Shown one piece after another: positions 32,457-41,691 of a stretch of 64,000 bases of DNA; the stretch's first letter is position 1; each line of letters begins with the position of its first letter. The stretch comes from Oligoflexia bacterium (GTDB lineage: Bacteria; Bdellovibrionota; Bdellovibrionia; JABDDW01), in contig JAYTHU010000062.1 of NCBI GenBank assembly GCA_043732305.1, positions 1-64,000 on the forward strand, written 5' to 3'. The position numbers and the translations under genes were made by a program. The notes under the pieces are model-generated. The model saw only the letters and a list, made by a program, of their open reading frames with translations, had not been told where the DNA came from and did not search any database.

Positions 32457-35108
32457 TCAGTAGGTGAAACCCATTCCACCTTTTTTGTTTATAGACTTTT
32501 CATTGAGTGCGCTAAACGAAACCTTCTCTAAAGTCAGCTTGCAGCTAGACCCTAAGGCGTTTGAGTTTGCAGATCCAGTCATGGTTTGCTTTTGAACGGC
32601 GGCATCGATGGCCTGTTCCACTTGGGTGATCCCTTGCCGAAAGCCAGATCGTGGATCAAAATATTCATCAGCGATTGCCGTAAGAAATTTATCTTCATTT
32701 TTTACGGTATAGTTTATGCCCGTTTGTCTTTTTTGCTCAGCTAACTTTTCCAGATACTTAGATTTAACGACTGCTAAAAACTCTTCTTTGGTTTGTGGAG
32801 GAGTGAATACCAGAACGAATTTCATTCGATTGATGAAATATTCAGACAGAGGGTTTCGATCATTCAGCATCGCTTGTTTTAATTCTTCGCCCACTATATT
32901 TGGATTTGCGACAACGGCATCTGCCCCTGCATTAGTAGCAAAAAACATTGTGGATTTTGTGGTCATCATTTCAACCACAGACTTGGCTCGTCCACTCAAA
33001 CCATCAATACTTTTACTCACGGCAATTGTTCCGGCATCTGTGACCGCTAGTAAAATATCTTGGATGTATTGAGGAGCTTTTTCGACTTCGTCAAACAGAA
33101 ACACTGTGAAAATACTTTTTTCTAACTCACGACCGATGTCTATTAGAAATTCTTCAGAAGTCCTTCCGGCGTAATGACTCAAAATGATTCTCTTGTAATT
33201 GAACCCCATGCTTTTAGCATAAACCATTGGAACAAAAGTTTTACCAACGCCCGCAGGACCTACGAGTAGTGCAAGACCCTGAGGAGTTTTACTCCCCGTG
33301 GTTTGATTGCTCGCCATCCTCTGCGCTGTGAAATCCAAAACAGCTTTAGCTTTTGGCAAACCAATCACAGCCTTGTTCATCTCCTTTTGATATTTGGCGT
33401 AGAGTTCTTTTCGTCCTTCAAAATCGAAAACACCTGGGTCAATGTTGTAGAGTTTGGCGGCAAATTTATCTAAATAATTGACGGTCACATTTGCAGGTGC
33501 CAGTCCGGGAATTTTGCTTTGAATTTTCAGGTGAGCATAAAAGCGATCTTGAAGTCTCACGGCTTTGTTCAAAGGCGATGCAATCGCATCAAACTCACGC
33601 GATAAGAAAGCAATACGGTCACGGATATTTTCTGGAAGAATTTCTTTCTTCTTAGTTTTTGCCCAATCAGCGAGTGCTTGTGTGATCATATCGTCAGGAA
33701 ACGCTGGTTTATTCACCAGAGTGAATCTCCTCATGAGACCATCATCACCGCCAAAAGCATTTTGAAATTTAGCGGGCTTGGACATAGCTATGATTCTAAG
33801 TGATCCATCTCCCAAGTAACTTTCGATTTTATTTATAATGTCCGATTCATTTCCAGTCGCACCACCGCCCCGCAATGTGTCTATTTCGTCGATAATTAAA
33901 ATGACGTCACGATTTCGAGCATAATCCATGAGCGCTTTCATTCGCGCTTCAGCTTGGCCGCGGAGAGAAGTTCCAGCTTCGATATCATCAACATGAATCT
34001 CTACAAACTTCGTCCAAACAGGAATTTCTGGAAATTTTCCCTCAGTCACGGCTTTCACAAAACTGCGAACAGTTTCAGATTTACCAGATCCAGCATCTCC
34101 AAGAATAACAACGTTCCGAGACTCTTCGGATTCTAATCCTTCGCGGATGCGATCACTCATATCTTCATCGAGTGCAAAAGTTTCTTTGCCCGCGCCAAGA
34201 TTTTCTTTGGTGTAATCTTTGAACACTCTAAAAATCATATCATTGAGATTTTCCTTGGCCCCATTTTCATTTGTGGCAGTGACATCGTTACTTGGCAAAT
34301 TAGGAGTTTTTCCGTTGAAAACGATTTTGTGTTCTAAAAGTGTAACTTGATAATTGTTTCCACCTTTTGCTTTATTAATCTCATAAGGATAAATTGAAAT
34401 CTTCTTGCTGGCAAACTCAACACCCTTAGAATCCAAGAAAGTAGCGCGGTCATCCGTCATTCCAACAGTCGCTTTTTTAGAAGCTTCAATCACCGCAAGA
34501 TCTTGGATCTCACCTTTTCTGTTTACAGCGAAATAGTGGGACGAAGGGCCGTTAGGACCTTGGCCAATAATCTTAAGAATACCAAGACCGGGTTCGGACG
34601 CTTGATAATACCAATGATGACTCACCCTGAATTCACCGATTTTGTGGCGGGCAATTTCAAATCCTGATGTACCAACGAGGGTAGAAAAATCGAGTGCCGT
34701 TTTCTCGCCATTTTGATTGATAACAAACAATCGGCCATCTACTTCCATAATAGTAAATTCAGAAATAAATTTTGAGTTAAACGTGACGGTATAATAATGG
34801 GAGCGAGATTGAGCATCGGCCCAGTTCATAATGTTATAGGGTGTGCGAGCCGGGTTCACATTGTCGTAAAATCTTTCAATATCGGCGCTAGAGAAAACGT
34901 TCTGCATTTTTTTGCCGTCAGCATCATAAATTTCGACTGTTCTGGATTTTGGAATGATTTTTAGGGTGTTACCATTAGTAAAACCAAAAATGAACTTTTC
35001 CTGCTGGCCATGGTTGACTGCAGTTGCAGATTCTGCAACTGCAGCGCTGCCCGAAACTAAAACTAAAACTGAAATTGATAAAAGAATTCCCCTGAATAAT
35101 TTAAACAT
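32457..35108 (-). CDS. Signal-peptide-bearing Clp/Hsp100-like double AAA+ ATPase
   Basis: Sec signal MFKLFRGILLSISVLVLVSGSAAVA; about 270-aa beta-rich N-domain. D1: GDAGSGKS / LIIDEID / LMRRF. D2: GPAGVGKT / FLFDEVEKA / FATNAG / EYFINR. Confidence 0.85.
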   Translation of the reverse strand: MFKLFRGILLSISVLVLVSGSAAVAESATAVNHGQQEKFIFGFTNGNTLKIIPKSRTVEIYDADGKKMQNVFSSADIERFYDNVNPARTPYNIMNWADAQSRSHYYTVTFNSKFISEFTIMEVDGRLFVINQNGEKTALDFSTLVGTSGFEIARHKIGEFRVSHHWYYQASEPGLGILKIIGQGPNGPSSHYFAVNRKGEIQDLAVIEASKKATVGMTDDRATFLDSKGVEFASKKISIYPYEINKAKGGNNYQVTLLEHKIVFNGKTPNLPSNDVTATNENGAKENLNDMIFRVFKDYTKENLGAGKETFALDEDMSDRIREGLESEESRNVVILGDAGSGKSETVRSFVKAVTEGKFPEIPVWTKFVEIHVDDIEAGTSLRGQAEARMKALMDYARNRDVILIIDEIDTLRGGGATGNESDIINKIESYLGDGSLRIIAMSKPAKFQNAFGGDDGLMRRFTLVNKPAFPDDMITQALADWAKTKKKEILPENIRDRIAFLSREFDAIASPLNKAVRLQDRFYAHLKIQSKIPGLAPANVTVNYLDKFAAKLYNIDPGVFDFEGRKELYAKYQKEMNKAVIGLPKAKAVLDFTAQRMASNQTTGSKTPQGLALLVGPAGVGKTFVPMVYAKSMGFNYKRIILSHYAGRTSEEFLIDIGRELEKSIFTVFLFDEVEKAPQYIQDILLAVTDAGTIAVSKSIDGLSGRAKSVVEMMTTKSTMFFATNAGADAVVANPNIVGEELKQAMLNDRNPLSEYFINRMKFVLVFTPPQTKEEFLAVVKSKYLEKLAEQKRQTGINYTVKNEDKFLTAIADEYFDPRSGFRQGITQVEQAIDAAVQKQTMTGSANSNALGSSCKLTLEKVSFSALNEKSINKKGGMGFTY

Positions 35109-35150
35109 TTGACCCCCTCGAATGTTTTCCCCAATTTGAAAAGTATATAT

Positions 35151-35166
35151 TGCAATCCGCGGTCCA
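35151..35166 (-). promoter_or_regulatory. sigma54 -24/-12 promoter of the exported AAA+ gene
   Basis: TGGACCGCGGATTGCA on the minus strand with exact spacing, 42 nt before the ATG. Confidence 0.65.
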
Positions 35167-35369
35167 GGAAGAGGCCTCAGTGATACTTGAAGTTCATGGA
35201 CAGTTCTTAGTAATTACTTCAAGAAATACTAAAGTATTCACATTGCTTAAATAGTCTGACAAGCCGGCTTGGCAGATTTTTAGGGACATTTTAGGGCACC
35301 GTTACAGAGTAAAAAAACCTTGTTACATGAGATTTAAGCACCCAAAAGCTCGTTGCTCCAAGGCAAGAC

Positions 35370-35385
35370 GGGCATAGGCCTTGCG
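35370..35385 (+). promoter_or_regulatory. sigma54 -24/-12 promoter
   Basis: GGGCATAGGCCTTGCG with exact spacing, 36 nt before the GTG at 35422. Confidence 0.65.
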
Positions 35386-35421
35386 ATAGTATTCACTTGA
35401 AACGTTACGGAGGTAACTCAA

Positions 35422-35670
35422 GTGGAACGATTATATAGGTATTTGCTTTTGGCTCTTTTTATCGTTGGTTTTGTCGGCGCAGTGTCAGGAATCGAATATT
35501 CGGGCCCTGCCGCAGTCGCCACGGTTGATTCTTCAGTCTCCCTAATCAAGGACGTGAGGCTCGCTCAAGAGATCAATAACCTCAATGAAGGACGTCTAAT
35601 GATCGAAGGTCAAGAAGACATGAACGAAAAGACTTTGACTCGCGTGGAACAGGTTTTCAGTCAGAAATAA
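35422..35670 (+). CDS. Small secreted or membrane-anchored hypothetical protein
   Basis: RBS GGAGGT; N-terminal hydrophobic segment; 82 aa. Confidence 0.7.
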   Translation: MERLYRYLLLALFIVGFVGAVSGIEYSGPAAVATVDSSVSLIKDVRLAQEINNLNEGRLMIEGQEDMNEKTLTRVEQVFSQK

Positions 35671-35712
35671 AATTCTCTTGCCCCTACTGTCGAAAACAGC
35701 GAAAAGTAGAGA

Positions 35713-38433
35713 ATGGAAAATTCAGAAACACCCCCCGCGGCGCCTACTATTGAAAAGGGTTATATCCCCACTCTTGTCGAACCAAAATGGTACGCTTTTT
35801 GGTTAGCGAAAAATTATTTCAAACCCGATGAAAATTCGACGGCTCCAACTTTTAGCGTCGTCATTCCTCCTCCAAACGTGACCGGCGTACTTCACATGGG
35901 CCATGCGCTCAATTGCACCATCCAAGATATTTTAGTTCGATTCAAAAGAATGCAAGGATTTAACACTGTCTGGATTCCAGGAATGGATCATGCCGGAATC
36001 TCCACGCAAATTGTCGTTGAAAAAATGCTCGCTAAAGACGGCATCAAGCGTGAAGTTTTGGGACGAGAAAAATTTGTTGAAAAAATCTGGGAATGGAAAG
36101 AGAAATCCGGCGGAATGATTCTTGAACAACAAAAGCGCCTAGGGATCAGTGTTGACTGGTCGCGATTGAAATTTACTTTAGATGAAGACATGTCTATGGC
36201 CGTCAAAAAAGTTTTTGTCGATTTGCACAAAGAAAAATTAATTTATCGTGGCAACAGACTTATCAACTGGTGCCCTCGGTGCGGTACCGCCGTGTCTGAC
36301 TTGGAAGTGAAACATCACGAAACCAAGGGAACCCTTTGGCATATCAAATATTTATTAGAAGATGGCACCGGCGAAGTTTTTGTCGCAACCACTCGTCCAG
36401 AAACTCTGCTAGGTGACACTGCGGTTGCCGTGAATCCCAAAGATGCTCGTTATAAAAATATTGTCGGCAAAAAAGTCAAACTTCCTCTGACCTCAAGAAC
36501 TATTCCTGTTATTGCCGACGACATGGTCGCACAAGAATTTGGAAGCGGAGTTGTGAAAATCACCCCCGCTCATGATTTCAACGATTATGAAACCGCACAA
36601 CGCAACGGTTTACCGATGATTGGAATTCTAGATAAAAAAGCAGTGCTAAATGAATATGCAGGAGCTTACAAGGGCCTCAAAGTTCACGACGCGCGTAAAA
36701 AAGTTTTGGAAGATCTAGTTACCGAAGGCTTATTGTTAAAAGAAGAATCGCATCTCATGTCTGTTGGGAAATGTGATCGTTGCGAAACCGTGATCGAACC
36801 CATGTTGTCGGACCAATGGTTTGTAAAAATCAAACCCCTTGCTGAACCAGCAATTAAAGTTGTCGAAAATAAAGATCTTAAATTCTATCCAGAAAACTGG
36901 TCCAAAACATATTTGGATTGGCTTTATAATATTAAGGATTGGTGCATTTCCCGTCAGCTCTGGTGGGGGCACCGCATTCCCGCTTGGTACTGTGATGATT
37001 GCAAACACATCACCGTCACAATGGACATTCCTCATAAATGTGAAAAGTGTGCAAGTGGAAAAATTCATCAAGATGAAGATGTTCTAGACACGTGGTTCAG
37101 TTCTTGGCTTTGGCCAATGAGCACCATGGGATGGCCTGATGAGACTCCGACACTTAAGAAATTTTATCCAACTTCTGTTCTAGTGACCGGATTTGATATT
37201 ATCTTCTTCTGGGTGGCCCGAATGGTCATGAGCGGACTACATTTTAAAAAGCAAATTCCATTTAAGGACGTTTATATCCATGCTCTGATTCGCGATGAAC
37301 GTGGGCAGAAAATGTCCAAGAGCAAAGGCAACGTTGTGGATCCATTAGACCTGGTCAATGATTATGGCACGGATGCTTTGAGATTCACGCTTGCTTCCAT
37401 GGTAGGAGCTGGACGAGATATCAAATTCAGTGAAGATCGATTAGATGGTTATCGCCATTTCATAAATAAAATTTGGAACGCGACAAGATTTTCACAAGGG
37501 GCTTTAGCCGAAGTAAAAATCGCAGAAAATATTGACGCCACCAAAATCACCTTATCTGACAAATTTATTATTTATGAATTGAAAAAGACTGTGGAAGAAG
37601 TCACAAAATCGCTTGAAGAATATCGTTTTACTGATGCGGCAACGAGTTTATATAAGTTCACTTGGAATGAATTCTGTGACTGGTACCTGGAATTTTCAAA
37701 ACCAACCTTGTATGGAACTGATCTTGAACAGAAGTCTCAATCGGGAGCTGTTCTTTATAAAGTATTAGACACTTTGATGAAGCTCTTGCATCCGTTCATT
37801 CCTTTTGTAACTGAAGAGATTTATCACTTATTGCCAAAACATGGCGAGAGTCTATGCGTTGAAAAATATCCGACAGTGGATGATCCATTCTTTATGTTGG
37901 CCTCGAGCGAAGCAGCGAGGGAAGTCGAAGCGGTGAAACTAGTTGTCTCCGCAGTGAGAAATATTCGTGGAGAGAACCGCATCAGTCCGGCAATTAAAAT
38001 TAAATTTTCCGTGGCCCTTGACGAAAAAAGTCCAACTTTTGCCGACTCAAAAAATGACAGTTTAAAAAACTTGAACATTCTGCGAGCAAACGACTCTTTT
38101 ATTCGTTCGCTAGGACGTGCTGAAGAAGTCACTTATTTTGAAACGATGCCTGAGACAAAAAAATCGGCCATCACACTGATCACGATGGGCTCTGCCCGCC
38201 TGCATGTAATTGTGCCTTTGGAGGGCTTGGTTGATTTCAATGAGGAGATCAAACGCTTAAATAAAGACTTGGAACGAGTAGCCAAAGATTATGAAATGGC
38301 CGAAAAGAAACTTTCCACTGAAACATTCATCAAGAACGCGCCCAAAGAGATAGTTGAACAAGAGAAGCTTCGTATCGTGCAACTTCAGGACAAGAAAAAG
38401 CAATTGTTGGAGAGCTTGGCTCTGCTGAAATGA
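35713..38433 (+). CDS. valS: Valine-tRNA ligase
   Basis: PPPNVTG.LHMGHA, DHAGI.TQ, ATTRPET, DWCISRQLWWGH, KMSKS and a C-terminal coiled coil. Confidence 0.99.
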   Translation: MENSETPPAAPTIEKGYIPTLVEPKWYAFWLAKNYFKPDENSTAPTFSVVIPPPNVTGVLHMGHALNCTIQDILVRFKRMQGFNTVWIPGMDHAGISTQIVVEKMLAKDGIKREVLGREKFVEKIWEWKEKSGGMILEQQKRLGISVDWSRLKFTLDEDMSMAVKKVFVDLHKEKLIYRGNRLINWCPRCGTAVSDLEVKHHETKGTLWHIKYLLEDGTGEVFVATTRPETLLGDTAVAVNPKDARYKNIVGKKVKLPLTSRTIPVIADDMVAQEFGSGVVKITPAHDFNDYETAQRNGLPMIGILDKKAVLNEYAGAYKGLKVHDARKKVLEDLVTEGLLLKEESHLMSVGKCDRCETVIEPMLSDQWFVKIKPLAEPAIKVVENKDLKFYPENWSKTYLDWLYNIKDWCISRQLWWGHRIPAWYCDDCKHITVTMDIPHKCEKCASGKIHQDEDVLDTWFSSWLWPMSTMGWPDETPTLKKFYPTSVLVTGFDIIFFWVARMVMSGLHFKKQIPFKDVYIHALIRDERGQKMSKSKGNVVDPLDLVNDYGTDALRFTLASMVGAGRDIKFSEDRLDGYRHFINKIWNATRFSQGALAEVKIAENIDATKITLSDKFIIYELKKTVEEVTKSLEEYRFTDAATSLYKFTWNEFCDWYLEFSKPTLYGTDLEQKSQSGAVLYKVLDTLMKLLHPFIPFVTEEIYHLLPKHGESLCVEKYPTVDDPFFMLASSEAAREVEAVKLVVSAVRNIRGENRISPAIKIKFSVALDEKSPTFADSKNDSLKNLNILRANDSFIRSLGRAEEVTYFETMPETKKSAITLITMGSARLHVIVPLEGLVDFNEEIKRLNKDLERVAKDYEMAEKKLSTETFIKNAPKEIVEQEKLRIVQLQDKKKQLLESLALLK

Positions 38434-38906
38434 GGACTAAGCTTTTAATCCCGTTATTTTTATTTCTGGTCTGTTTTATTTCTTCCGTGGAGGCTCCGGC
38501 GGGAAAAGCAAAATTGAAAGTTTACTACGCCCATCCCCTAAGTCTTTACGACACCACTCTAGAAAAGAGCGACATAGACACGTTGACTGCACTTGGATTT
38601 AAAGTGATTAATCCAAATGACCCCTCTATTGAGAGGAAGTTTCAGAAGTCACAAAACTTCGGGATTTTTCTGGATCTTGTTCGGTCGTCGGATGCGATCG
38701 CGTTTCGATCCTTCGCAGGTGGCGAGATAAGTAGCGGCGTTGTTTCAGAAATTAGAATCGCCAGTGAATTAAATTTACCTGTCATCGAATTACCGACGAT
38801 GATTTCTGAGAGAGCTTTGACTCAAGAACAAACGATAAAATTACTAGATGATTCAGGCACCACCAGACATTGCGCCGAGGTCTTGAGTACAAAATTCCCT
38901 CTGTAA
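38430..38906 (+). CDS. Secreted nucleoside 2-deoxyribosyltransferase / Rcl-like N-glycosidase-fold protein
   Basis: Signal peptide (..SVEA); KVYYAHP, VINPND, DLVRSSDAI and SSGVVSEI..A....LPVI pattern. Confidence 0.65.
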   Translation: MRTKLLIPLFLFLVCFISSVEAPAGKAKLKVYYAHPLSLYDTTLEKSDIDTLTALGFKVINPNDPSIERKFQKSQNFGIFLDLVRSSDAIAFRSFAGGEISSGVVSEIRIASELNLPVIELPTMISERALTQEQTIKLLDDSGTTRHCAEVLSTKFPL

Positions 38907-38958: not shown

Positions 38959-41691
38959 TTAGTACAGCTCTTGTGGGTACTTAAGCAAAGGCATCTTAAA
39001 GTTTGCTTTGCTTGGATTGGTGAGCACGCAATAATAATCGTTGTAAACCAGACATTGTGCAAAGTCGTAAACGGCGGATTTGACTTTGATGGGCAATTTC
39101 TTTCTATCTAGCACCAAAAATGTTTTATCCATTTCCAGGGTGTCCAGCTGATAAGGCCATAAAGGTTTCAAATCAATCGATCCGTAAAATTTAAACGTTT
39201 GAAATATCGACATGTCATTTACGTAGCGGCCTAAAAATACCACATCTTTACTTTTGATATTTTGATCAAGCTTTATGATATTCACCAAGTTGAGTAGGTC
39301 TTTACTGCGTGTTCCAGCTGTTTTGATTGGTAAAGCCACAAATAGACAAAGAAATAATAAGGAAAGTCTCTGCGTGATTTTGGCCAAAGGAATTTTATAG
39401 CTTGTTACCAAGAGATACAGCGGATATGCCGCAATGAGTGAAAAGAATGGATAAAACGGCAAAAGGTAATGCGGGTATTTAATTATGAAGAAAGACAATG
39501 GAACAATAATACTTGCGGAGACAAACGCACAGAGTTTTATGATCTGTAGTCCATTTTCAGAGATACCACGGAAATTTGTGCGCGCCAGAATTATCGGTGT
39601 AAGCACAGCGGCCAAAACTGGAACTGAAGCCATTTGCAAAACCAAAACAAAATAAGCCAAATAGCGATACCAGTAAGTCGTGGTTAGATAGCTCGACTTC
39701 CACATCAAAAACATTGTGTACATATTTAAACCGTCAAACTGCAAAGCCGGAAGAAGCGGAACCATGAACAGTGTCATCATGGTGACTAGTGAATAATAAA
39801 AATGACGTTCCTTTAAAAAAGAATATTGCTTTTGTGTGAGTGCCCAAGAAAAAATCCCTAAAGGTAGACCGAAGATGATCGGCCCTTTCGTAAAAACTCC
39901 AAATGCAAAAAACATCGTTGCTAAGTAAAAAAGTTTTGGTTTTTTGAATGCGCGCAAGAAGCAATAGAATGAGGCGAGATAATACATGGTGAGGGGAACG
40001 TCGTGCATGAGAGCCCCATTCCATTTCGTAGCCCCAAAACATAGAATGTACATGACGATCGCAGCCAACCCGTAAACTTTGTCTTTGATCATTGTTCCGA
40101 TGCGAAAAACTAGAATGTAGGAAATAAAAGAGCAGATCATCGGATAGAGCCTAGCCGCAAAATCAGAAGGTCCCATTATTTTGAACACCCATGCGGTGAT
40201 CCAATAAGTCATCGGCATGTGATCGAAAATATCTTTAAAATAATATTTCGAAATCGTGAAATGAAAAAAATCACCCGTGAGGTAGATGTTTTTAGCAATC
40301 GCACTGTACCAAACAGTGTCGATATTTCCTCCCGGCTCCCATTTTTTAATAAAAACAACGGTGAAGGCAACAATGCAAACTGCTTTAAAATAGTCATCCG
40401 CAAAAAACAAAGACATTTTGCGCCAAGTATTTTTGATGAAGTCCCATTCCGGCGCGGCCAAATTATATTTATAACGAAGACCTGCCACGAGCGCGAGCCA
40501 GAAGATAAACTGGTGCATTACCTTCATGTCGCCAAAATTAAACTGCGTGAGACCGCCCACATGAAAAGCAACTTGCGCTCCCAGCGCAGCAAGGACCATG
40601 ACTTTGTCCCAAACCTGATCTTTGGGAATTCGTTGATAAAGTTGTAATGTCATAATCAAGAACAAAGCAATGAACGACATGTAACAGAAAAATCCCAAAA
40701 TGCCCGTCGTTGCTAACATTTGAATATAATTATTATGAGCATGCCCAATTAAAGCGTCACCGACGCCAGGCATGTTTTTATAGTATGAGGCCACGAGTTT
40801 TTCATTTTGCTGATAGCCCACGCCAATCCACGGATGATCGCGGAACATTTCCATATTGGCCTGCCAAAGCACTTTTCTCTCAGCGTTGCTACGATAGTTC
40901 TCGGAGAAAATAGACTTCGCACGTTCACTAAAAAACGGATCAATTTTGCAAAGAAGCAAACTACCTAAAACAAACAAAGACAAAATGACCATGACTAGTC
41001 GCTTGCTTACCAACAAAGCCATGATTGGAAGTGCAATCAATGCCGCAATCCAAACTCCGCGACCATATGTGAAAATTAAACTGACGCCAATGATAGCAGC
41101 GGAAGTGAGATAATAACTTTTTCGAAGCCAAGTGGCCCCACGGTCAAGCAACAAACCCGCCCATGGAATGCAGAGAATCATCACATAACTGTGACCGTAA
41201 GTGAGATGGTGATTAAACAGTCCGACGGTCGAATATCCGGTATGATCGCCCCAAGGCACGGGCATAAGTGCACGGTGATTATGCCTCCACAAATCTATTC
41301 CTGTGAAATGTTGCCAAATCCCATAAACCGCAATAACAGTGGCGCAGCCAAGAATGACTTCAATTAGTTTTTGTTTCTTGTCGAACAACTGAAGAATCAT
41401 GGGAAGAGAAAAAATCAGCAATAGATTGCGAATGCGCCCAAAAGAATAAAGGAGATCGCTGTCTTGATCATTTATTAGTAGGCCAATTAAAACAATAAGT
41501 GAAAAAACGAGACAAGTTATTTCAACACCGACCGGTTTCCATTTGATTGTGATTTTTTTATTTTTTGTTCCCCACAACCACCAAGCGCAGAAGCTAATCG
41601 ATGCACCCCAACCCGCAATTTCCATGGCGGCCATTGAGCATGTCAGAGCGATCACATAGAGGACAAAGAGGACTTTGATAAAGTTTTTCAT
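38959..41691 (-). CDS. Fusion of O-antigen ligase-like (WaaL/Wzy_C) and ArnT/PMT-family GT-C glycosyltransferase
   Basis: N-half: TYGRG, ER..LW....MFRDHPWIGVG, HAHNNYIQ.L.TTGILG. C-half: DTVWY..IAKNI...GD, DHMP..YW, FKIMG.SDFAARL, TKGP. Single open frame with many TMs. Confidence 0.8.
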   Translation of the reverse strand: MKNFIKVLFVLYVIALTCSMAAMEIAGWGASISFCAWWLWGTKNKKITIKWKPVGVEITCLVFSLIVLIGLLINDQDSDLLYSFGRIRNLLLIFSLPMILQLFDKKQKLIEVILGCATVIAVYGIWQHFTGIDLWRHNHRALMPVPWGDHTGYSTVGLFNHHLTYGHSYVMILCIPWAGLLLDRGATWLRKSYYLTSAAIIGVSLIFTYGRGVWIAALIALPIMALLVSKRLVMVILSLFVLGSLLLCKIDPFFSERAKSIFSENYRSNAERKVLWQANMEMFRDHPWIGVGYQQNEKLVASYYKNMPGVGDALIGHAHNNYIQMLATTGILGFFCYMSFIALFLIMTLQLYQRIPKDQVWDKVMVLAALGAQVAFHVGGLTQFNFGDMKVMHQFIFWLALVAGLRYKYNLAAPEWDFIKNTWRKMSLFFADDYFKAVCIVAFTVVFIKKWEPGGNIDTVWYSAIAKNIYLTGDFFHFTISKYYFKDIFDHMPMTYWITAWVFKIMGPSDFAARLYPMICSFISYILVFRIGTMIKDKVYGLAAIVMYILCFGATKWNGALMHDVPLTMYYLASFYCFLRAFKKPKLFYLATMFFAFGVFTKGPIIFGLPLGIFSWALTQKQYSFLKERHFYYSLVTMMTLFMVPLLPALQFDGLNMYTMFLMWKSSYLTTTYWYRYLAYFVLVLQMASVPVLAAVLTPIILARTNFRGISENGLQIIKLCAFVSASIIVPLSFFIIKYPHYLLPFYPFFSLIAAYPLYLLVTSYKIPLAKITQRLSLLFLCLFVALPIKTAGTRSKDLLNLVNIIKLDQNIKSKDVVFLGRYVNDMSIFQTFKFYGSIDLKPLWPYQLDTLEMDKTFLVLDRKKLPIKVKSAVYDFAQCLVYNDYYCVLTNPSKANFKMPLLKYPQELY

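Follow-up and report, generated by a model that had tools for sequence, protein, structure and literature searches.

A portable cysteine motif on predicted exported enzymes of a Bdellovibrionota bacterium: a probable second-step sorting signal

The stretch analysed here (the window) covers the opening 64 kb of contig JAYTHU010000062.1 (C62) of an uncultured, presumably predatory Oligoflexia bacterium of the phylum Bdellovibrionota (assembly GCA_043732305.1, here G000; 2.99 Mb, 98.4% complete). It encodes two predicted exported proteins of unrelated folds, a Clp/Hsp100-like double AAA+ ATPase and a protein with the fold of nucleoside 2'-deoxyribosyltransferases (NDT), each with a lone Cys near its C-terminus. 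The wider motif to which these Cys residues belong, C-x-x-h-[L/F]-x-x-h (h, hydrophobic), occurs at an N- or C-terminal free end, more often the N-terminal one, and about 50-70 predicted exported proteins of this genome carry it. We call it the tag. It is real, widespread in the phylum and portable, and it is probably a second-step sorting signal, read after Sec export.

Two exported proteins with a lone terminal cysteine

C856, encoded at 32541-32543, is the sole Cys of the ATPase and lies in SSCKLTLEKV behind a Ser/Gly/Asn linker, with 27 residues remaining. In the NDT-like protein C148 (codon 38871-38873) is the sole Cys of the mature chain and lies in RHCAEVLSTK, with 10 residues remaining; the second Cys, C15, falls within the signal peptide. 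Both Cys positions agree with the initial annotation, coordinates included, and the Sec signals that it had assigned to the two proteins are supported by a hydropathy heuristic. The ATPase start is backed by a GAGGGG ribosome site just 5' of the ATG, and the NDT gene start by an ATGA overlap with the valS stop. Features of the locus are listed in Table 1.

Table 1. Genes and features of the window discussed in the text
Feature	Position	Strand	Remarks
Exported Clp/Hsp100-like double AAA+ ATPase, 883 aa	32457..35108	-	Signal peptide, unannotated beta-rich N-terminal domain, two AAA+ modules, Cys tag, xGF tail
ATPase predicted Sec signal peptide, ~residues 1-23	35040..35108	-	Heuristic; helix 2-24 in model
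ATPase D1 and D2 AAA+ modules, residues 309-847	32568..34184	-	Family-wide conservation of Walker A/B, arginine fingers and sensor residues
ATPase Cys tag C856-K-L-T-L-E-K-V	32520..32543	-	Invariant in 7/7 orthologues; 3.5 bits on other-genome profile
ATPase M-G-F tail, residues 879-881	32466..32474	-	Sequence
Exported NDT-fold (N-glycosidase/deoxyribosyltransferase-like) protein, 158 aa	38430..38906	+	Foldseek, sequence
NDT-like protein predicted Sec signal peptide, ~residues 1-24	38430..38501	+	Heuristic; contains C15, no lipobox
NDT-like protein Cys tag C148-A-E-V-L-S-T-K	38871..38894	+	Beyond NDT domain
82-aa open reading frame	35422..35670	+	Signal-like N-terminus, without Cys or Pfam match, directly upstream of valS
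910-aa membrane protein	38959..41691	-	O-antigen ligase (Wzy_C) fused to PMT-family glycosyltransferase domain

The ATPase is a class I Clp-type protein with two AAA+ modules, Walker A/B motifs, arginine fingers and sensors (NCBIfam ClpA, E 1e-43, below cut-off; top Foldseek hits ClpA/ClpC). A Clp_N repeat domain, a cytoplasmic location and a GYVG pore loop in D2 are usual features of class I Clp/Hsp100 proteins. The ATPase gave no match to PF02861 (Clp_N), and the D2 GYVG loop was missing in the alignment. Its MGF tail resembles the ClpP-docking IGF motif.

For the NDT-like protein, the top 10 Foldseek hits were all NDTs (E 5e-4 to 3e-3, TM 0.42-0.48). Pfam gave only DUF4406 (E 0.044), and the ESM Atlas only leads below 0.9, from phage and NDT-like clusters. 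Tyr33 and Glu107 are invariant (Glu107 in 7/7), and we assume Glu107 to be the candidate catalytic nucleophile. The model has a low-confidence terminal helix, residues 147-155, following the domain. Both folds agree with the initial annotation, which noted that they normally act on cytoplasmic substrates (ATP, nucleotides). The two genes lie on opposite strands, with valS and the 82-aa open reading frame between them, and form no unit.

Distribution of the tag in the genome and in protein families

In the whole genome 2704 genes were called by our own script and classed by the hydropathy heuristic, not by SignalP. Restricting the set to complete proteins of 100 or more mature residues left 487 signal-peptide (SP) and 1310 cytoplasmic proteins. 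Among SP proteins a Cys was followed by xxxL in 43/172 cases in the first 30 mature residues, 18/93 in the last 30 and 57/768 internally (p 1e-9 for the N-end and 6e-4 for the C-end, each against internal); the cytoplasmic counts were 39/282, 25/252 and 286/3256, with p 0.56 at the C-end. Lone Cys residues showed a similar distribution. The 115 single-Cys SP proteins had the Cys in the first 30 residues in 37 cases and in the last 30 in 21, with 12.6 expected for each, and the 239 single-Cys cytoplasmic proteins in 39 and 30, with 36.3 expected. Leu stood at +4 of the terminal lone Cys in 21/37 at the N-end and 12/21 at the C-end. Mean hydropathy around this Cys peaked at +3, +4 and +7, which is the pattern of an amphipathic helix. 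The helix postulated in the initial annotation is thus seen as a genome-wide hydropathy pattern, but for the window ATPase AlphaFold predicts a strand at the tag (residues 855-858), over which the confidence drops from ~69 to 50.

An independent profile was made from 126 Clp tails, all from other genomes, and its use here is hence not circular. It separated terminal from internal Cys in SP proteins (p 1e-9 at the C-end, 5e-7 at the N-end) and did so much more weakly in cytoplasmic proteins (p 0.18 and 0.048, respectively). The window ATPase scored 3.5 bits and the NDT-like protein a weak 0.98 bits. Motif carriers at the C-end were 27/487 SP against 37/1310 cytoplasmic proteins (p 0.009), and at either end 73/487 against 82/1310 (p 2.5e-8). 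Enrichment in exported proteins is thereby upheld. The supposed C-terminal motif does occur beyond chance at that end, but the tag is not confined to it and is commoner at the N-terminus.

A first position-weight matrix, trained on the proteins that it scored and so circular, gave 51 candidates and served for candidate-picking only. A regular expression gave 72 candidates, 49 N-terminal and 23 C-terminal, with some evident false positives; no protein was tagged at both ends. The Cys of N-terminal tags in SP proteins lies at residue 22-53 from the start, 1-27 residues past the predicted signal-peptidase-I site. His/Asp-rich stretches precede several of the N-terminal tags (L212-L216, L218, L220, L227).

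These N-terminal tags bear on a rather improbable alternative, in which an enzyme recognises the amphipathic helix at a membrane surface and S-lipidates the Cys, so that the tagged protein is anchored to the outer membrane of the predator or to prey-fusing vesicles. The hydrophobic face at i+3/i+4/i+7 behind the Cys would suit membrane binding, and two Lgt-family genes occur in most of 151 Bdellovibrionota genomes, three in this one. Cys-containing CTERM signals have also been proposed as lipidated, in the accessible part of a preprint (Haft, bioRxiv 10.1101/2023.06.07.544157). Against lipidation, however, 46/47 N-tags are not lipoboxes, and in 38/47 a charged residue separates the Cys from the cleavage site. 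There is no transmembrane segment, and no Rce1-like protease was found in the 98.4% complete genome. Lgt copies do not follow the tag, with two in G065, where no tag was seen, and one in G157, where tags occur. One protein combines a lipobox with a C-terminal tag.

The tag is conserved in the exported Clp family. When the ATPase was searched for by word index, ClpB matches dominated and 1 orthologue was recovered. A profile search of 1.84 billion representatives found at least 150 family representatives at 50% clustering, of which the best 150 were analysed. C856 is invariant in all seven close orthologues. Among these best 150 exported Clp-like ATPases, 127 had a Cys in the last 45 residues, where ~6% would be expected from the internal rate of 0.14%; the same was true of 1/118 ordinary ClpA/B proteins and 0/14 ClpA proteins of relatives. 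The consensus of the tails is C-[ED]-x-L-[LF]. In 113/127 the Cys is 5-14 residues from the end, and it floats 25-84 residues behind the sensor-2 Arg (89/112 rows had both). Tags were spread throughout a FastTree of 146 family members from which the tails had been left out, and the nearest member to the window ATPase in that tree had 39% identity. Among the 23 proteins that lack a Cys in this stretch of 45 residues, several look truncated and one has its Cys slightly further in, at 48. The heuristic found a signal peptide in 88/150, and many of the others look mis-started.

Other features of the family concern its tails and partners. The xGF motif occurs in the D2 loop of 42 members and in the tail of 15/150, and only 1 has both. 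This genome encodes a single ClpP, so that a foreign ClpP could be the partner of an xGF-bearing exported Clp. Among the tagless Clps with a Pro/Tyr tail (P0213, P0217, P0218, P0220, P0224, P0226, P0237, P0239, P0245, P0248, P0249 and P0253), 9 of 12 end in hydrophobic-Tyr-X, which resembles the proteasome-docking HbYX motif, and several have additional Cys in the N-terminal domain. Adjoining an exported Clp at L151:11747-16003 (-) is a 1419-aa exported tagged protein with a Clp-like AAA+ and an M41 (FtsH-type) protease.

The tag was also conserved in two further families. An exported SpoVR-YeaH fusion is present in 21/151 phylum genomes. At the loci examined a Cys lay no more than 45 residues from the mature start in 22/22, with a hydrophobic residue at +4 in 21 (by eye), and the gene upstream had a C-terminal tag in 21/22, with a hydrophobic +4 in 20. 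These tags span 10 families. A three-gene exported operon for PrkA, a ~1800-aa protein and SpoVR-YeaH, all tagged, lies at G000:C50:1270-12292 (L030; also L171, L209-L238) and likewise occurs in 21/151 phylum genomes, and the PrkA operon of G051 has its tags at the same ends.

In 120 adenosine deaminases, both proteins with a cleavable signal and an N-terminal extension carry the motif, namely the tagged copy of this genome and a Bacteriovoracia adenosine deaminase-GNAT fusion. Two further signal-bearing adenosine deaminases are lipoprotein-like and without the motif. The loose pattern was matched by 9/116 signal-less ones, inside the catalytic domain.

Conservation of the Cys in orthologues, which the initial annotation had named as a test, holds for the ATPase but not for the NDT-like protein, whose C-terminal Cys is kept in 0/6 homologues. 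Homologue P0123 has a signal peptide followed by C-S-S-L-F, and that in G198, the only other phylum homologue found (matches in 2/401 phylum genomes), a signal peptide followed by C-A-T-V-V. The tag switches ends within the NDT family. Homologues without a signal peptide (4 proteins, 14 loci) had no tagged extension, and a search of genome contigs confirmed no NDT relatives.

On these data it is highly improbable that the motif is a by-product of ordinary structure or of the heuristic, such as terminal helices, mis-called lipoproteins or structural disulfides. The heuristic does make errors (4/91 sampled exported-class proteins were plainly cytoplasmic), the tag of the window ATPase fits a domain strand, that of the NDT-like protein scores weakly, and at the C-end, taken by itself, SP and cytoplasmic proteins differ only modestly (p 0.009-0.03). 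A lone Cys, however, cannot form an intrachain disulfide. The contrast between exported and ordinary Clps, the near-complete tagging of SpoVR-YeaH and its upstream gene, the switching of ends within one family and the lack of the tag in recognisable envelope proteins (see below) all speak against such a by-product, which the Clp, independent-profile and SpoVR-YeaH data have largely refuted.

Cargo, proposed delivery and alternatives

A Pfam scan was made of 60 proteins from tagged loci, including two neighbours without a clear tag or signal, and matched 15/60, 9 of them of cytoplasmic type and 6 ambiguous. The cytoplasmic-type cargo was adenosine deaminase, SpoVR-YeaH, two ATP-grasp proteins, DnaJ, MoxR, PepC and two weak Leu/Phe-tRNA transferase matches; PrkA and the second Clp are further cargo of this type. 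Housekeeping paralogues of adenosine deaminase, ClpB, DnaJ and SpoVR/YeaH in the same genome had neither signal nor tag. As a control, which is not a frequency estimate, the window and ~395 kb of large contigs supplied 91 exported-class proteins, with already-fetched tagged genes excluded. Terminal C-x3-[LF] was found in 0/28 recognisable envelope proteins (substrate-binding proteins, MlaD, FtsQ, SLT, penicillin-binding proteins, LolA, SurA, LptC, AsmA, outer-membrane proteins and others), and in this set a PepC and one TPR protein had it. The proposed link to cytoplasmic-type folds holds, then, among recognisable cargo.

Tags are found on whole gene clusters. The C31 cluster has a tag on each of its 8 genes and the C50 PrkA operon on each of its 3, as would be expected if subunits travel separately. 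The C31 cluster (G000:C31:24488-39783; L027, L192) consists of eight consecutive tagged genes, an unannotated paralogue family and the second exported Clp. The six genes at G000:C188:319-9085 (L045) encode an exported MoxR-like ATPase, its 907-aa partner and a group of four related proteins of 340-370 aa; five are tagged, and the sixth, a member of that group, has Ser for Cys. Among 43 unannotated proteins 1 matched PHROGs, the tagged 684-aa protein at L028:1134-3185 (+) (phrog_1745, 'DNA transfer protein', E 1e-66, with a weaker metallophosphoesterase match), which is probably a captured phage domain.

The spread in the phylum was sampled in 80-400 kb per genome, amounts from which absence cannot be read. 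The load was uneven: pattern matches per SP proteins were 5/18 in G127, 3/16 in G051, 6/70 in G014 (two or three convincing), 3/35 in G001, 3/35 in G067 and 2/34 in G008 (none convincing in either of these two), 1/14 in G124, 1/10 in G141 and 0/11 in G065. Tags were also seen beside exported Clps in G142 and G120.

As the tag works at either end, it is unlikely to be a cleavage or transpeptidation site, for cargo would then fall on opposite sides of the cut; side-chain chemistry or binding would remain. The genome encodes a VKOR-DsbA fusion and has an oxidative folding pathway, and for a lone Cys in such a periplasm a mixed disulfide would be the simplest outcome. A cytoplasm is where cargo dependent on ATP, aminoacyl-tRNA or DnaK has to act. 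We consider it nearly an even chance that the lone tag Cys is disulfide-bonded to a carrier which delivers the cargo into the prey cell.

A complete and so far undescribed delivery route is proposed tentatively, as a possibility somewhat short of even. Any enzyme would become cargo of the Bdellovibrionota through a signal peptide and a portable Cys-helix at either end, be disulfide-clipped to a common carrier that enters the prey cytoplasm, and be freed there by reduction; domains captured from housekeeping proteins or phages would be among such cargo, as would entire AAA+ machines, one subunit at a time. In the carrier reading given before this, the signal peptides predict Sec export to the periplasm. 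The amphipathic tag would then bind a groove of the common partner, and the VKOR-DsbA pathway would oxidise the unpaired Cys onto a Cys of that partner. At contact with prey, the partner or a type IV filament machine, that is a type II secretion system (T2SS), type IVa pili (T4aP) or Tad pili, would move the cargo out. In the reducing prey cytoplasm the cargo would be freed and, as its identity suggests, would break down proteins and nucleotides with the help of ATP, aminoacyl-tRNA and chaperones of the prey.

The genome encodes T2SS (GspD/E/F-like genes), type IVa pili, Tad pili and flagellar genes. Two candidate processing enzymes were rejected. Myxosortase-type processing was discarded since no Rce1-like gene (PF02517) was found in G000, where 11/14 control genomes matched. 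A dedicated Lgt paralogue was discarded since almost all of 151 phylum genomes have two copies, whose presence shows no relation to that of the tag.

The presence of T2SS, T4aP and Tad genes also fits an alternative that we think unlikely. Here one of these existing outer-membrane machines would recognise the tag, binding it non-covalently or only transiently via the Cys, and cargo would be released to the prey periplasm or feeding junction and reach the cytoplasm through a breached inner membrane. No dedicated machinery adjoins the tagged genes, part of the cargo could act outside the cytoplasm, and the Ser-for-Cys paralogue retains the helix. The available part of one study has B. exovorus disrupting the prey inner membrane and B. 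bacteriovorus seeming not to need this (PMC11055950), the first in favour of such a breach and the second against it. The Cys is, however, the only near-invariant position and is retained where other Cys are depleted, and multi-subunit machines that consume ATP would fit a leaking dead cell poorly.

A further alternative, very unlikely in our view, gives the tag no routing role. As a self-protection or storage latch, binding to a periplasmic holdase or a cargo-cargo disulfide would keep enzymes inactive until reduction. One unpaired Cys per protein in an oxidising periplasm would suit a latch, and no immunity-like genes adjoin the cargo in the clusters viewed. The periplasm is without ATP, however, and ATP-dependent enzymes are already idle there. 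The same motif on unrelated folds would also be needless unless a common partner reads it, which amounts to sorting.

Several observations weigh against a sorting tag with a disulfide-bound carrier. No recurring neighbour or partner gene was found at 15 exported-Clp loci, and no convincing carrier emerged when 176 odd-Cys untagged exported proteins were compared with 1.87 Mb of DNA from relatives; 49 had hits, and coverage was low. The data do not separate disulfide, lipidation and non-covalent binding. The predatory habit of the organism is inferred from kinship and gene content. No Pfam match was obtained for 45/60 scanned proteins, and cargo of the PLD, M48, WG repeat, alpha/beta hydrolase, transglutaminase and Ig-like types could act outside the cytoplasm. 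Tags are scarce or not seen in the small samples of several phylum genomes.

Individual proteins also depart from the pattern. Twelve exported Clps with a Tyr/Pro tail have no tag; all are in one 20-member branch, and export of the ATPase is thus not always coupled to the tag. Clp P0129 stops at the Cys and has no helix, one C188 paralogue has Ser in place of the Cys, the f17 genome deviates in both the SpoVR-YeaH and the upstream-gene tag, and NDT homologue P0122, with an apparently truncated signal, is without a tag. Internal Cys are rarer in exported Clps than in housekeeping ClpA (0.14% against 0.54%), but this is expected of any exported protein. In the sub-branch of the window the tag sits where the last D2-small strand would be, and the modelled strand suggests that the ATPase tag may double as that strand.

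How Bdellovibrio reaches the cytoplasmic contents of prey is listed as an open question in the part of a review at hand (PMC10225642), and the prey cytoplasm is described in part of another source as staying compartmentalised, yet Sec-exported enzymes must reach it (PMC2797640). A portable tag for either end makes this question testable: cargo can be predicted from sequence, reporters can be given the tag by fusion, and the tag Cys offers a bait for trapping the partner. If the proposed delivery is true, the tag would list the effector arsenal of each predator and give a handle on the route to the prey cytoplasm. The export of ATP-dependent machines (Clp, PrkA, MoxR, ATP-grasp), pointless if they stayed in the periplasm, would also be accounted for.

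Comparison with known sorting systems

No description of this tag was found in the literature searched, which held few subscription papers and excluded supplements. The portions available of two recent reviews (PMC13689555, PMC12428579) do not mention cysteine, and that of the lipocone paper mentions secreted Bdellovibrionota effectors and describes no such tag (PMC12419801).

Like the MYXO-, JDVT-, Synerg- and CGP-CTERM signals, the tag is a short motif with an invariant Cys on many unrelated exported proteins of one genome. CTERM signals differ in sequence, and no NCBIfam sorting model matched 62 proteins of this analysis at E 1e-4. They have a transmembrane helix and an Arg cluster after the motif, whereas the tails here are short and polar, and they are confined to the C-terminus, whereas 49/72 tags here are N-terminal. 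Their cognate Rce1/CPBP protease had no match in G000. CTERM cargo consists of surface proteins, in contrast to the cytoplasmic-type enzymes here.

With the lipoprotein signal (Lgt/LspA/Lnt) the tag shares a Sec signal and an essential Cys near the mature start. In a lipobox the Cys stands directly behind the hydrophobic region; a lipobox-like triplet is present in only 1/47 N-tags, and the same motif also occurs at the C-terminus. AB toxins such as the typhoid toxin CdtB-PltA follow an analogous principle, in which one Cys tethers the enzyme to a delivery chain and reduction frees it in the target (PMC6469816, in the part available). This is an analogy only: no B-type partner is co-encoded at 15 exported-Clp loci, dozens of unrelated cargos share the tag, and a bacterium is the presumed target.

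Substrates of the type IX secretion system (T9SS) and of T2SS likewise undergo Sec export and then cross the next membrane by means of a second signal that they carry themselves. In T9SS this signal is always C-terminal and forms a folded domain of ~70-80 residues, whereas the tag has fewer than 10 residues and stands at either end, and no such Pfam domain was found in the 60 scanned proteins. We know of no linear T2SS signal. If the tag proves to be a recognition signal of T2SS or Tad, it would belong to a known kind as a further variant, and its linear form would still make it notable.

The window ATPase itself shares two AAA+ modules, catalytic motifs and the fold with class I Clp/Hsp100 proteins (ClpA, ClpB, ClpC). 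It differs in its signal peptide, a novel N-terminal domain in place of Clp_N, the lack of the D2 GYVG loop and the terminal Cys tag. Signal and tag are both missing from housekeeping ClpA/B. Every known sorting signal tested failed a defining feature, and the signal is in this respect new in kind.

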